From Octopus sinensis (taxonomy: Eukaryota): 38,694 nt of DNA. Where the stretch lies: positions 1-38,694 of the forward strand of contig NW_021835862.1 in the NCBI RefSeq assembly GCF_006345805.1, written 5' to 3'. A model generated the notes under the pieces. That model saw only the letters and a program-made list of their open reading frames with translations. It ran no database searches and was not told the origin of the DNA. Numbering within the stretch: position 1 is the stretch's first letter; the number at the start of each line of letters is the position of its first letter. Below, one piece after another: positions 7,668 to 22,361 of this stretch. Made by a program: the position numbers and the translations under genes.

Positions 7668-8239
7668 TATGTATATATATGTATATATATATATATAATA
7701 TATATATATATATATATATATATATATATGTATGTATATATATATATATATATATATATATATAAAGATTAAATATTAAATATTAAATAATTCTATCTTA
7801 CCAACTCAACTCAGTATCAGAGCGAGCTATAATCCTCAACTAGTATCACCGAATTCAAATTTGTGAATGAAACGATTGTGTCAACAGCCCCTTCCCACCC
7901 GCGTGTAGCCCAAACAAGATGCTGTAGTCATCTACTGAGATAAAATATGGTTATCCGTAATAATGAAGGGTGAAATTAATTAATTTGGGATAATTATCAA
8001 TTACACCAAGTAGTCTTCGGCATGTAAAAGCCTCATTTGAGGAAAATTTAAGTAATACTAAGCAATAAGGGTTCAGCAACGAATTGCCTTCCACATACCG
8101 AATTTAGAAATAGCAGTCAAAGGGTTATAGCTATTTCTTCTACTAAAAAGGAGATCTCAGTAAAAACAGCAATTGGAAGGCTGACACAAACAGGTAAGAG
8201 AGAATGAATTAACCGCAATCTATCAACATTTTAAAGTTA

Positions 8240-8349
8240 TCCACGGACGTACGTTTCGAAATCAAGTTTTAGGAAAGCATAAGAATTAAAATATTAAATA
8301 TTAAATAATTCTATCTTACCGAAACTTCTTTTCTCTTCTTCAGCGTGGA
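8240..8349 (-). ncRNA. Type I hammerhead ribozyme motif, family A (3-nt insertion after core)
   Basis: Reverse complement reads TCCACG-CTGAAGA-(AGA)GAAA...TTTC-GAAAC-GTAC-GTC-CGTGGA. Confidence 0.7.
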
Positions 8350-8841
8350 ATACTATAATCATAAATGATTATATATTGAATTTTGAGATACTAGGAGGTA
8401 CCAACTCAACTCAGTATCAGAGCGAGCTAGAATCCTCAACTAGTATCACCGAATTCAAATTTGTGAATGAACGATTGTGTCAACACAGCCCTTCCCACCC
8501 GCGTGTAGCCAAAACAAGATGCTGTAGTCATCTACTGAGATAAAATATGGTTATCCGTAATAATGAAGGGTGAAATTAATTAATTTGGGATAATTATCAA
8601 TTACACCAAGTAGTCTTCGGCATGTAAAAGCCTCATTGAGGAAAATTTAAGTAATACTAAGCAATAAGGGTTCAGCAACGAATTGCCTTACCACATACCG
8701 AATTTAGAAATAGCAGTCAAAGGTTATAGCTATTTCTTCTACTAAAAAGGGAGATCTCAGTAAAAACAGCAATTGGAAGGCTGACACAAACAGGTAAGAG
8801 AGAATGAATTAACCGCAATCTATCAAACATTTTTAAAGTTA

Positions 8842-8950
8842 TCCACCACGACGTACGTTTCGAAATCAAGTTTTAGGAAAGCATAAGAATTAAAATATTA
8901 AATATTAAATAATTCTATCTTACCGAAACTTCTTTTCTCTTCAGCGTGGA
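8842..8950 (-). ncRNA. Type I hammerhead ribozyme motif, family A (indel in stem I 3' strand)
   Basis: Reverse complement reads TCCACG-CTGAAGA-GAAA...TTTC-GAAAC-GTAC-GTC-GTGGTGGA. Confidence 0.7.
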
Positions 8951-9221
8951 ATACTATAATCATAAATGATTATTATTATGAATTTTGAGATACTAGGAGG
9001 TACCAACTCAACTCAGTATCAGAGCGAGCTAGAATCCTCAACTAGTATCACCGAATTCAAATTTGTGAATGAAACGATTGTGTCAACAGCCCCTTCCCAC
9101 CCGCGTGTAGCCAAAACAAGATGCTGTAGTCATCTACTGAGATAAAATATGGTTATCCGTAATAATGAAGGGTGAGTATCTCAAAATTCAATATATAATC
9201 ATTTATGATTATAGTATTCCA

Positions 9222-9326
9222 CCACGCTGAAGAGAAAAGAAGTTTCGGTAAGATAGAATTATTTAATATTTAATATTTTAATTCTTATGCTTTCCTAAAA
9301 CTTGATTTCGAAACGTACGTCCGTGA
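9222..9326 (+). ncRNA. Type I hammerhead ribozyme motif, family A
   Basis: CACG-CTGAAGA (9227-9233), GAAAC (9310-9314), GTAC, GTC (9319-9321), CGTG. Confidence 0.78.
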
Positions 9327-9826
9327 TAACTTTAAAAATGTTTGATAGATTGCGTGTAATTCATTCTCTCTTACCTGTTTGTGTCAGCCTTCCAATTGCT
9401 GTTTTTACTGAGATCTCCCTTTTTAGTAGAAGAAAAAGCTATAACCCTTTGACTGCTATTTCTAAATTCGGTATGTGGTAAGGCAATTCGTTGCTGAACC
9501 CTTATTGCTTAGTATTACTTAAATTTTCCTCAAATGAGGCTTTTACATGCCGAAGACTACTTCGTGTAATTGATAATTATCCCAAATTAATTAATTTCAC
9601 CCTTCATTATTACGGATAACCATATTTTAATCTCAGTAGATGACTACAGCATCTTGTTTTGGCTACACGCGGGTGGGAAGGGGCTGTTGACACAATCGTT
9701 TCATTCACAAAATTGAATTCGGTGATACTAGTTGAGGATTCTAGCTCGCTCTGATACTGAGTTGAGTTGGGTACCCTAGTATCCTATATCTCACAATTCA
9801 TATATAATCATTTATGATTATAGTAT

Positions 9827-9936
9827 TCCACGCTGCTGAAGAGAAAAGAAGTTTCGGTAAGATAGAATTATTTAATATTTAATATTTTAATTCTTATGCT
9901 TTCCTAAAACTTGATTTCGAAACGTACGTCCGTGGA
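9827..9936 (+). ncRNA. Type I hammerhead ribozyme motif, family A (CTG duplicated before core)
   Basis: TCCACG-CTG-CTGAAGA (9836-9842), GAAAC (9919-9923), GTC (9928-9930), CGTGGA. Confidence 0.72.
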
Positions 9937-19556: not shown

Positions 19557-19646
19557 TTTTAGTACGATCGTTTCATACAAGGACAGGTTTTATTAAAAGT
19601 TGCAAAGATTACAGCATATAAACGAGTCCCGACTCATCAGCTAAAA
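19557..19646 (-). ncRNA. Type I hammerhead ribozyme motif, family B
   Basis: Reverse complement reads TTTTAG-CTGATGA-GTCGGGAC...GTCCTTGTAT-GAAAC-GATC-GTA-CTAAAA. Confidence 0.75.
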
Positions 19647-20065
19647 TACATGTAAGTTCCCTAGACATCCAGTGTTTGAGGCTATACTCATGAAGTAATG
19701 TAGATAATTAAACAGATTTCTAAAGTTCATTAAGTTCTTTAAGATGATGTACAGTCTTATCACAGAATTTTAAAAAAGTTTTGATAGCATCACAGAGAAG
19801 GTGACCTAATCCATATGAATTCCATAGATATGATGAGGGATTATATATTTGTCTTCTGTGAGTATATAATCCCTCATCATATCTATGGAAATTCATATGG
19901 ATTAGGTCACTTCTCTGTGATGCTATCAAAACTTTTTTAAAATTCTGTGATAAGACTGTACATCATCTTTAAAGAACTTTAATGAACTTTAGAAATCTTT
20001 TTAATTATCTACATTACTTCATGAGTATAGCCTCAAACACTAGGATGTCTAGGGACTTACATGTA

Positions 20066-20155
20066 TTTTAGCTGATGAGTACGGGACTCGTTTATATGCT
20101 GTAATCTTTGCAATTTTAATAAAACCTGTCCTTGTATGAAACGATCGTACTAAAA
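20066..20155 (+). ncRNA. Type I hammerhead ribozyme motif, family B, intact
   Basis: Stem I TTTTAG / CTAAAA; CTGATGA 20072-20078; stem II GTACGGGAC / GTCCTTGTAT; GAAAC 20138-20142; palindrome ACGATCGT; GUA cleavage predicted after 20149. Confidence 0.85.
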
Positions 20156-21816
20156 ACCTATCCATTCTTGTTGCTTCTTTCTCGCTTATAATCACCCCCA
20201 TTACTGTATTGTTAAATCAGTATAGTTTTTTTTTTGGTGCATCTAAGTTAGGTACCATATTCAAGTAAATTTTTAAAATTAACTTGAATCTTTATTGCTC
20301 TTTGAAATATATATATATATATATATATATATATATATATATATATATATATATATCAAAAAAATAAGAGAGAGTCCACCGGTGTTCACTCTAACGCTAG
20401 ATATAGATCCGCAATGTATAAATGTATTATAAATAGATGAGTGTATATTTGCCTTGTTACAACACGGAAAAAATAAAAATAAATAGTTACCAGGGTAGCA
20501 AAAAATCACACTAGCAAGAGGTTGTAATTCCTTTTTTTTAAGGTAGAAACTTCGTGTTTACGTGGAATCTTTGTATAATGTATAAATGTATATATATATA
20601 AGTGTATAAACGTATATATATATATATATATATATATATATATATTATATATATATATATATTATGTATATTATGTTGAAAGAACAAAATCTTATTTGGT
20701 ACGGAATTATATATCTTTATTTTTATGACTGTAATATACTCCTTAATCCTGTAAACCAAAGCTAAAAACGTATAACCTATCGTTTATAAAATTATTTGCG
20801 AAAAAGTACTTATTATTATTATTATATTATTATTATTATTATTATTATTATTATTATTATTATTATATTATTATTATTATTATTATTGTTATTATTATTA
20901 TTAAAATAATAGTACTAGAAATATGATAAGAGCTTTTAGTTATACTAAAACATTTTTACAATCTAAATCACAAAGTGACAAACTAATATTTTACAATTTA
21001 CTTTCAAATATAATAATTATCAAATAATAATGATTAGATAAATGTACGTATCTAAATCATCATTAACAAAAAAAAAAAAATTAGAAAATCTTATTTATCA
21101 ATCAATCAATACTTATATAGAGTACATTATTATTTCTTAAATAAAAATGTATAGTTTTCTCTCCAAAAGATGTATTATGAACTAAAAAATTTTAACACAA
21201 AAAACATATTACTTAGCGTTTATAAATTTACTCGTGAACTAATTAGTAATTTCATTATTTTGTTGTTATTGTTGTTGTTGATATTGTTATTGCTATTATT
21301 ATTATTATACTTATTATATGTGTACTAAAATTAAAAGTATTAAGTATTATTATTTTTGGGGAAATAGTTTTAGCAACGTTAAATAATTTTGAATATGTAG
21401 TAAATATTTTATTTTTTATGTACTATCTATTTATAATAATAATATGTACTTTATTTATTCCCTTAATGATCGAAGTATTAAATCTAAATATAAATTTATC
21501 TACTTATATGATAAGTTTAATTTATTAGTTAGGATTTATTTTAAATTGATGTAATGAAATGATTGCATAGTTCAATTAAATGGAGTCGCCTGAAACGACC
21601 GTACTGCATTACCTCTGGATATCCTTGTTGCTTATTTTGATTATAGATGTATGTGTATATATATATGTTATATATAATATATATATATTATATATATATA
21701 TATATATATATATATATATATATACATATATATATATATATATATATTATACTAATGTTAAAATTATAAAATTTTACTAATGTGTCCTTCTAATTTATTT
21801 AAATTCTATATCTTTG

Positions 21817-21908
21817 TGCAGCTAAAGATTGCTCTACATTTTAAATTGATGTAATGAAATGATTGCATTGTTCAATTAAATAGAGTCGCATGAAACGATC
21901 GTACTGTA
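21817..21908 (+). ncRNA. Hammerhead motif, family C, core mutated (CTAAAGA)
   Basis: TGCAG-CTAAAGA...GCAT-GAAAC-GATC-GTA-CTGTA; the G-to-A change in CUGANGA predicts inactivity. Confidence 0.55.
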
Positions 21909-22152
21909 GTACCTCTGGATATCCTTGTTGCTTATATATATATGTTTGTGTGTGTATGTGTCTGTGTGTGTGTGTGTGTGTGTGTGTGTGTGTCTGTGTG
22001 TGTGTGTCTGTGTGTGTTTGTGTGTGTAAAAAATTTAGATTCAGATGAATATGTTACTTAATTTGAGACACCAGAATTTAGTACGGTATTATCCATACAA
22101 TTTCAAAATAAAGTGATTAAAATCAAATAAGCCACAAGGATATCCAGAGGTA

Positions 22153-22246
22153 ATGTAGTACGATCGTTTCATGCGACTCTATTTAATTGAACAATGCAAT
22201 TATTTTATTACATCAGTTTAAAATGTAGAGCAATCTTCAGCTGCAC
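22153..22246 (-). ncRNA. Type I hammerhead ribozyme motif, family C
   Basis: Reverse complement reads GTGCAG-CTGAAGA-TTGCTCTA...TAGAGTCGCAT-GAAAC-GATC-GTA-CTACAT; first stem II position is U.U and stem I has one mismatch. Confidence 0.65.
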
Positions 22247-22361
22247 ATAGGTATAGAATTTAATTAAATTAGAAGGACACACTAGCATAATTTTACCTAA
22301 AATTCTAAGAGGATTAGGAGATAGAACATGTTAAAATTATAAAATTATACTAATGCGTCCA

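Follow-up and report, generated by a model that had tools for sequence, protein, structure and literature searches.

Elements of the Hydra clade of Penelope-like elements (PLEs), which includes Hydra-1_Obim of Octopus bimaculoides, have been reported to insert into (TA)n and to have inverted 5′ copies, tails and hammerhead ribozymes (PMC8557442). We analyzed a stretch of 38,694 nucleotides (nt) of the Octopus sinensis genome (contig NW_021835862.1, positions 1 to 38,694), called the window below, that contains four families of hammerhead-bearing repeats, here named A, B, C and D. A protein fragment labeled Octopus is 68% identical, which likewise suggests an octopus host. Judged from their sequences, protein-coding Hydra-type PLEs gave rise to B, C and D, which are their truncated and inverted 3′ ends, or pseudo-long terminal repeats (pLTRs), and A is a retrozyme with a unit of 605 nt. 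We consider it probable that A was copied into (TA)n by a Hydra-type reverse transcriptase (RT)-endonuclease.

The published Hydra signature consists of RWK, a change from DKG to DKT, a CxCx5C linker, CxxC/CxH and the absence of CCHH. In the same survey, Naiad PLEs have an N-terminal endonuclease, DKA and no canonical hammerhead (PMC8557442). Mobilization of animal retrozymes by PLE machinery through a circular template has been proposed (PMC7229834; bioRxiv 10.64898/2026.07.22.740005), and Li et al. (2026) gave homology to the pLTR of an autonomous PLE as a retrozyme feature (bioRxiv 10.64898/2026.07.22.740005). Cephalopods are absent from the text of both retrozyme studies.

A preliminary description of the window proposed PLE-linked, (TA)n-targeting ribozyme repeats with a common architecture that may be poorly annotated. 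This core held up, and Rfam indeed misses them. Most of the traits flagged there, namely (TA)n targeting, inverted junctions, the palindromic stem III and the optional tail, are already published for Hydra elements or other PLEs. What appears to be new relative to the literature that we found is the long stem II, the long 3′ untranslated regions (UTRs), the tails of 90-135 nt, and an autonomous element with near-identical copies that is of about the same age as a retrozyme.

Hammerhead motifs in the window

We searched with a descriptor comprising CTGANGA and GAAA at a distance of 6-120 nt, followed by a palindromic hexamer and UH, which was fitted to the finding. It matches 10 motifs between positions 8246 and 22240, of which A has five, D and B two each and C one, as compared with a mean of 0.06 and a maximum of 1 in 100 local dinucleotide shuffles. 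A looser descriptor matches 8 motifs, versus a mean of 0.27 and a maximum of 2 in 200 shuffles. The earlier claim of four hammerhead families within 15 kb is thus borne out, at a motif frequency far above that of shuffled sequence.

All ten motifs are type I hammerheads with an 8-nt palindromic stem III and a long stem II, as had been described. The stem II insert is 76-79 nt in A, 47 and 54 nt in D, 59 nt in B and 63 nt in C. The type I assignment applies to every motif, but stem I is degenerate in both D copies, with 0 and 2 contiguous pairs. In the window, (TA)n adjoins all four families, also as noted before. Rfam reports no hammerhead family at E-values up to 5 in the window or up to 10 at positions 19400-22500, and the long stem II insert is the likely cause.

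Stem III forms no stable hairpin, and a self-duplex of -7.3 to -11.1 kcal/mol is predicted. According to these predictions, the active hammerhead would be a dimer held together by the palindromic stem III, and the long stem II would fold as an irregular rod of modest stability. Similar properties are known from the minimal hammerheads of PLEs, which have a palindromic helix III that is predicted to dimerize and a longer-than-usual helix II, occur as several families per genome and as opposite-strand pairs 100-700 bp apart, and mostly correspond to truncated PLE ends (PMC4209133). However, their helix II has 6-8 bp, whereas the predicted rod here has 47-79 nt, or ~101 nt in a relative of A called A2. 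Within B, C and D the insert is 47-63 nt, in contrast to ~25 nt or less in the Hydra rows of File S2 of PMC8557442 and 22 nt in Hydra-1_Obim. The only similar lengths that we saw in print belong to two Selaginella PLE-X motifs of ~50 nt in that file, which are flagged as deviating.

Stem II length varies within this genome, given that the insert is 21 nt in the copy that we read (L368) of an older Hydra-type family with a remnant in the window, and 10 nt in a young Hydra-type family with a 727-codon frame. Inserts of 47-101 nt escape Rfam and exceed those in published tables of PLE hammerheads, so that ribozyme counts in such genomes are probably low. We found no report of a long-stem-II or octopus hammerhead in a search that covered mainly the open literature, where supplements may list such motifs or families; the main text of PMC13282606 does not mention ribozymes, hammerheads, Hydra or retrozymes. 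Further hammerhead families, with a stem II of 46-77 nt and the other palindromes ACACGTGT, ACATATGT, ACATGTGT and ACAATTGT, occur in flanks of the loci L107 (-657), L124 (+5200), L164 (+6904), L236, L328, L347, L065 and L108.

Families B, C and D

Family B (19526-20306) consists of two 5′-truncated 3′ ends, inverted relative to each other, that derive from a young coding Hydra-type PLE of ~4.5 kb. Its minus-strand arm finishes in (TA)n, and its plus-strand arm bears a 120-nt tail (20186-20306) that corresponds to the start of the element's 5′ UTR. One hammerhead lies on the minus strand (19563-19640) and one on the plus strand (20072-20149), the latter with a 6-bp stem I; both have the 59-nt insert. 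Our family searches score only the best 30-150 candidates. For B, 40 were scored of 1279 first-look candidates, and these match at 95-100%.

Divergent pairs of B lie 3.5-6 kb apart and flank RT and endonuclease frames. An endonuclease query matched 25 places at 100% identity, one of which is within an uninterrupted frame of 947 codons (locus L156); first-look candidates for one endonuclease query numbered 18,719, which are candidates and not copy numbers. At L156 the order is an inverted truncated copy, the open reading frame (ORF), a 1.55-kb 3′ UTR, B and the tail, and the first codons adjoin the inversion junction. At L086, the 120-nt tail past B continues into the 5′ UTR and the ORF start, and the distance from the tail start to the 3′ end is ~4.5 kb. 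A B-type hammerhead with a non-canonical stem II of 59-60 nt closes all 12 loci that were chosen by endonuclease match (75-100%). The ends of B go to TA (14) or to the common tail (16) in 30 of 30 cases, against a background of 3.6%.

The 947-amino acid (aa) protein has RWK, DKT, YRDD, CxCx5C and, at its C terminus, a GIY-YIG domain (VIY...YIG) without CCHH, as well as CxxC and CxH around a conserved E and N. No motif of the published Hydra signature is missing. Over 479 aa, the protein shares 35% identity with a 712-aa relative, and Pfam finds nothing above its cut-off in it. We provisionally assign the parent of B to the Hydra clade, as a PLE with RT and then a C-terminal GIY-YIG in a single ORF. 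Assignment to Naiad was rejected, because the endonuclease is C-terminal rather than N-terminal and the motif is DKT rather than DKA.

The resemblance to described Hydra elements extends from this protein layout, with its RWK, DKT, CxCx5C and lack of CCHH, to insertion in (TA)n, a type I hammerhead close to the 3′ end, truncation on the 5′ side, an inverted 5′ copy and an optional tail (PMC8557442). By contrast, the elements here are 4.5-5 kb long, with Asn-rich inserts in the 947-aa ORF, whereas Hydra elements are generally described as shorter than 3 kb. Further differences are the 3′ UTRs of 1.2-2.4 kb in B, C and sister families, the strict 8-nt palindrome, and a tail of 90-135 nt where 30-40 bp are described for PLEs (PMC8557442).

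Family C consists of two plus-strand 3′-end fragments (21538-21935), each followed by TA/TG repeats, and a minus-strand 3′ end of a coding Hydra-type PLE (22030-22360). The first plus-strand fragment (21538-21645) begins inside stem II and the second (21755-21935) has a mutated core. The hammerhead that had been claimed for C is intact in the minus-strand copy only (22159-22240, insert 63 nt). The minus arm has a ~90-nt tail that reaches 22030 and an inverted remnant of ~30 bp at 22331-22360. Since the main arms are tail-to-tail, this remnant is the only head-to-head trace. The inverted junction proposed for every family is accordingly present as a head-to-head junction in A (9175), D (~11389) and B (~19853), but is reduced in C to that trace.

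Walking upstream from C reveals more than 2 kb of common sequence with variable 5′ truncation. In 3 of 30 loci, C is preceded upstream, on its own strand, by an endonuclease that is 55-64% identical to that of B, and L343 has the full C chain. The ORFs linked to C and D are broken, and CxCx5C is present in C copies. A sister ORF family is closed by a C-like hammerhead in 7 of 10 loci, and 21 of 24 C ends go to TA or the common tail.

Family D (11065-11572) comprises an inverted pair of 5′-truncated 3′ ends that stem from an old coding Hydra-type PLE. The minus arm (11065-11386) has a ~135-nt tail, and the plus arm (11392-11572) finishes in (TA)n. The minus-strand hammerhead (11272-11337) has the 47-nt insert and a weak stem I, and the plus-strand hammerhead (11429-11501) has the 54-nt insert and the degenerate stem I. 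An RT remnant adjoins the inversion junction of D at L251; when this remnant was used as a query, 4 of 5 extended loci had D downstream of it in the same orientation. Over ~5 kb, L341 contains an inverted D, a D, ORF fragments, a UTR and another D, which is a full pLTR-ORF-pLTR layout. The preliminary description had set some boundaries too short: because each family includes the common tail, B reaches ~20306, D ~11065 and the minus arm of C ~22030.

The families were also thought to be unrelated, which is not the case for B and C. Fifteen ribozymes of the B and C types align end to end, and the two families are homologous across the whole ribozyme and the 3′ end. For stem I, the base of stem II, an apical hairpin and stem III, 94.5% of 255 alignment cells pair, with double-sided changes in 6 of 17 pairs. 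None of 500 shuffles reached this paired fraction or covariation score, and slid controls pair in at most 50%. The structure was drawn from the same related sequences, so these values are support and not a probability. Folding of the tails gave no common structure (z of -3.4 for B and of -2.2 to 0 for the others).

The proteins of B and C form one clade. In a midpoint-rooted tree of the endonuclease regions of 17 own copies and 15 relatives, which left out 9 of 24 relatives that lack a usable linker match, the B and C types are grouped at 100/98, and D and the remnant family join at 94/96. Copies of B differ from the window copy by 0.6% (27 best hits), those of C by 8% (21 hits) and those of D by 12% (25 hits). 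A retrozyme is a short tandem unit without a coding parent; B, C and D are variably truncated ends of coding elements of 4.5-5 kb and do not belong to this class. The Hydra clade, so far known from few families, appears to be large and recently active in this genome.

Family A and its mobilization

Family A (7762-10738) is a non-coding tandem array of 4.9 units of ~605 nt. Its minus arm (7762-9175) and plus arm (9175-10738) meet head-to-head at 9175, with (TA)n on both sides. Hammerheads, given from the core start to the cleavage nucleotide, lie on the minus strand at 8246-8343 (insert 79 nt) and 8850-8944 (76 nt, stem I disturbed), and on the plus strand at 9227-9321 (76 nt), 9836-9930 (3-nt insertion before the core) and 10441-10535 (intact, 6-bp stem I). 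The array's 3′ end is ~196-205 nt past the predicted cleavage site of the last.

The unit from cleavage site to cleavage site has 604-609 nt, a GC content of 34% and a longest ATG-initiated ORF of 47 aa. Its circular fold has -150.7 kcal/mol, versus -118.6 +/- 6.2 kcal/mol for 40 shuffles (z of -5.2). With a non-coding tandem repeat, one type I hammerhead per unit, low GC content and no flanking ORF, we classify A as a non-LTR retrozyme, the sole non-autonomous family among the four. It also resembles published metazoan retrozymes in its dispersed arrays, predicted highly paired circle and co-occurrence with PLEs (PMC7229834; bioRxiv 10.64898/2026.07.22.740005). The unit is longer than the 170-400 nt known in invertebrates (PMC7229834), but within the range of 51-972 bp in the later study (bioRxiv 10.64898/2026.07.22.740005). 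Relative to the text of these papers, the 76-nt stem II, the strict (TA)n ends, the 5′ inversions, the 3′ ends at two positions and the failure to find a pLTR parent are particular to A.

A search with A returned 244 tandem matches from 30 scored of 1632 first-look candidates, and 17 arrays that we examined whole have 3.3-14.6 units each. As judged by eye, TA runs adjoin 26 of 26 3′ ends of these arrays, compared to 3.6% of background positions. The arrays begin at variable positions in the unit and finish at two fixed ones. A 5′ inversion is present in 9 of the 17, several of them with multi-unit arms, and in all 9 the two arms stop apart, at unit position 342-351 in one and at 419-451 in the other. 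Substitution distances are 0.33% within and 0.58% between arrays (127 units, 16 arrays), and 11 of 16 arrays have an array-wide variant. Most of the apparent divergence consists of indels, which are probably due to assembly error. Given the 0.6% mismatch of B copies to the window copy, A and B are about equal in age.

Relatives of A include a copy at 82% identity, A2 (unit of ~610 nt, stem II of ~101 nt), which mostly occurs as ~1-1.3 units, and A3 (stem II of 55 nt). The whole lineage has a unit of ~550-610 nt without an ORF, and the older relatives keep the region around the 3′ end. Copies of the lineage are often in or beside Hydra copies (L107, L321, L324, L380, L160), for which shared targets or co-insertion are possible explanations. 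Two such cases were considered as parents of A and rejected. The A-like sequence after the L107 Hydra ORF is an insertion of an A relative, being found after the stop codon in 0 of 24 other loci of that family. The A-like unit after the L380 Hydra ORF is likewise such an insertion, since 29 other loci of its family match only to the insertion point and lack a unit of this kind past the ORF. A 3′ motif, CTT(A/G)TTGCTT, that is common to A, B and C is lost in the relatives of A and was not used. Contigs of three runs that we guess to be RNA and of one run of unknown kind cover the A unit, which is no evidence either way. A different young, tandem, retrozyme-like repeat was seen at L431 (G000:C3:152803500-152806800), with a unit of ~478 nt, an inversion, a (TA)n end and a hammerhead with a short stem II.

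A possible mechanism follows by analogy from the PLE Poseidon_Ac of the green anole, in which two RT starts downstream of the hammerhead define an optional tail and the target is AT-rich (PMC11167929). That element belongs to another PLE clade, its tail is 30-40 nt and its hammerhead overlaps the ORF start; moreover, its mechanism was shown in vitro, whereas ours is inferred. The GIY-YIG endonuclease would nick (TA)n, and RT would begin at either of two internal RNA sites that follow the hammerhead downstream. What the sequences themselves show is the layout of the elements, their ORFs, the two fixed 3′ ends, the (TA)n flanks and the compensatory pairing in the ribozyme stems. Relative to the predicted cleavage site, the short end is ~37 nt downstream for B and C, ~70 nt for D and ~196 nt for A, and the long end is 90-135 nt beyond the short one. 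In an inverted insertion, one arm takes the short end and the other arm the long end. Because copies end 37-196 nt past this site and yet contain the ribozyme, the template would be either a circle or uncleaved tandem RNA. The A arrays of up to ~15 near-identical units would fit rolling-circle copying from a circle of ~605 nt. The B protein is the leading candidate for the mover of A, by age and architecture only.

A more specific proposal is that the intact long-stem-II element B and the sequence-unrelated lineage of A, A2 and A3, with the same ends, inversions and (TA)n, form an active pair. The helper would read its parasite by RNA shape (the stem II rod and a 3′ module), and a ~605-nt circle would be copied by rolling-circle RT in one event. 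We put this forward tentatively and think it doubtful in its full form. If it were true, extended-stem hammerheads would be a large, systematically missed PLE class, to which the "half-core" Naiad cases that matched no descriptor of Craig et al. may belong (PMC8557442). Independently of this, an uninterrupted Hydra ORF and an equally young retrozyme with PLE-type ends are present in one genome, which makes the question of mobilization testable in vitro.

Several observations weigh against the reading of B, C and D as Hydra-type ends and of A as a passenger of such an element. At the DNA level, no match of A to B, C or D is significant (best E-value 0.096), and no autonomous parent or helper of A was found among the best-scoring candidates sampled, where no Hydra family examined has an A-like end. 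The long inserts of A-D are moderately stable (z of -1.4 to -3.5), and for most window copies, folding without constraints gives a minimum-energy structure other than the active conformation. The element is longer than is general for the Hydra clade. The coding link of C comes from the 3 of 30 loci described above, and a further candidate link at L258 was rejected because its junction is host sequence and thus coincidental. In the anole system, the hammerhead was dispensable for insertion in vitro, and unprocessed RNA served as its main substrate (PMC11167929); of 9 retrozyme dimers from Xenopus, only 1 cleaved in vitro (bioRxiv 10.64898/2026.07.22.740005). The low divergence within A arrays also fits local tandem expansion.

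This last point belongs to an explanation in which a PLE inserts one or two A units that then grow by unequal crossover, or in which long uncleaved tandem transcripts are copied, so that no circle is needed and the hammerheads may be largely inactive. Besides the low divergence, the array-wide variants fit it, Li et al. (2026) favor satellite-type expansion (bioRxiv 10.64898/2026.07.22.740005), the anole hammerhead was dispensable in vitro, and the older relative A2 mostly occurs as the ~1-1.3 units given above. However, variable starts, two fixed ends and inversions in 9 of 17 arrays are what one RT event on a repetitive template should produce. Further, the between-array divergence of 0.58% leaves little time for expansion, and retrozymes of coral, mussel and axolotl are documented to form circles (PMC7229834). 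On balance, we regard this explanation as rather unlikely. A similarly limited chance is given to the idea that A was moved by another young (TA)n-targeting retroelement, such as the 727-codon Hydra family or Neptune or another PLE, or that A is the pLTR of an unsampled coding element. It is compatible with the lack of detectable sequence in common between A and B, C or D, with the existence of at least one other young Hydra family that has open frames of 700-727 codons, and with the limited number of candidates scored per search. Yet no sampled family has an A-like end, the A lineage keeps its ORF-less unit, and the long stem II, 8-nt palindrome and ~100-nt tail of A are nearer to the subclade of B, C and D than to the short-stem 727-codon family.

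The preliminary description held that all four families are unrelated, non-autonomous ribozyme elements that rely on a PLE such as a remnant at 4885-6010. In agreement with it, all four are short and ORF-less in the window, and short 3′ pieces make up most copies of B, C and D in the genome. However, the non-autonomous label stands for A only. Upstream of B, C and D there are long 3′ UTRs and Hydra-type RT-endonuclease ORFs, with variable 5′ truncation, and B is homologous to C. Divergence in the remnant family is about 80%, and its L368 copy finishes in the hammerhead with the 21-nt stem II. For B and D this explanation is refuted by full-length copies, and for the set as a whole it is highly improbable.

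Neighboring repeats and local clustering

The remnant itself is an older Hydra-type PLE fragment (5160-6010, minus strand) that covers the thumb and linker and is cut before the CxCx5C linker and endonuclease. Its family shows 75-84% identity among 39 other matches, and most other copies reach CxCx5C and the endonuclease. As the family is old and has a different 3′ end, the remnant was rejected as a helper or parent of A-D. The fold-back that had been attributed to it is separate: an independent, dispersed repeat of ~270 bp (4885-5155) with arms that are 80-90% alike, which follows the ORF in 0 of 19 other loci of the remnant family and occurs at 8 unrelated places among the examined loci. Beyond the window, fold-back loci are L164, L259, L267, L116, L263, L275, L322 and L325. 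The repeat contains the word CTGAAGA, but we found no hammerhead topology in it, and it is possibly a miniature inverted-repeat transposable element. On its 5′ side, the Hydra remnant is cut by a broken transposase (6010-7050, minus strand) with an N-terminal helix-turn-helix (Pfam HTH_23, E-value 7.9e-9), which we take from its motifs to be Tc1/mariner-like. The second young Hydra-type family mentioned above, with frames of up to ~727 codons and a short canonical hammerhead, is represented by L421 and L427 (G000:C17:13932131-13938200) and has many near-identical copies.

At loci chosen for other families, the hammerhead background amounts to 2 hits over 225 kb in one set and 4 hits over 428 kb in another, which corresponds to 0.13-0.19 insertions per 15 kb. 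The four insertions of the window in 15 kb are thus a rough 20- to 30-fold local excess, a crude figure in which old copies are missed. Under a Poisson model, 2-8 such stretches are expected genome-wide. A TA-rich neighborhood and the selection of the window suffice to explain the clustering, and a functional cluster is not implied.

The window contains other repeats. Remnants of the C-terminal part of non-LTR retrotransposons, presumably R4/Dong-like, are found on the minus strand at 1500-2900, 25600-26330 and 26750-27780 (weak zf-RVT, E-value 0.002). With these occurs a repeat of ~550 bp beside (ATT)n, at ~800-1370, 24950-25500 and 27960-28500. A weak Rfam match to mir-34 at 33375-33416 on the plus strand (22.4 bits, E-value 1.3) is far under the gathering score and probably due to chance. 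A long imperfect inverted repeat at 11561-12295 surrounds a GC-rich, near-perfect hairpin at ~11890-11960. Finally, positions 28865-29490 and 29770-30390 are a near-identical direct duplication of ~620 bp with (ATT)n between the copies.

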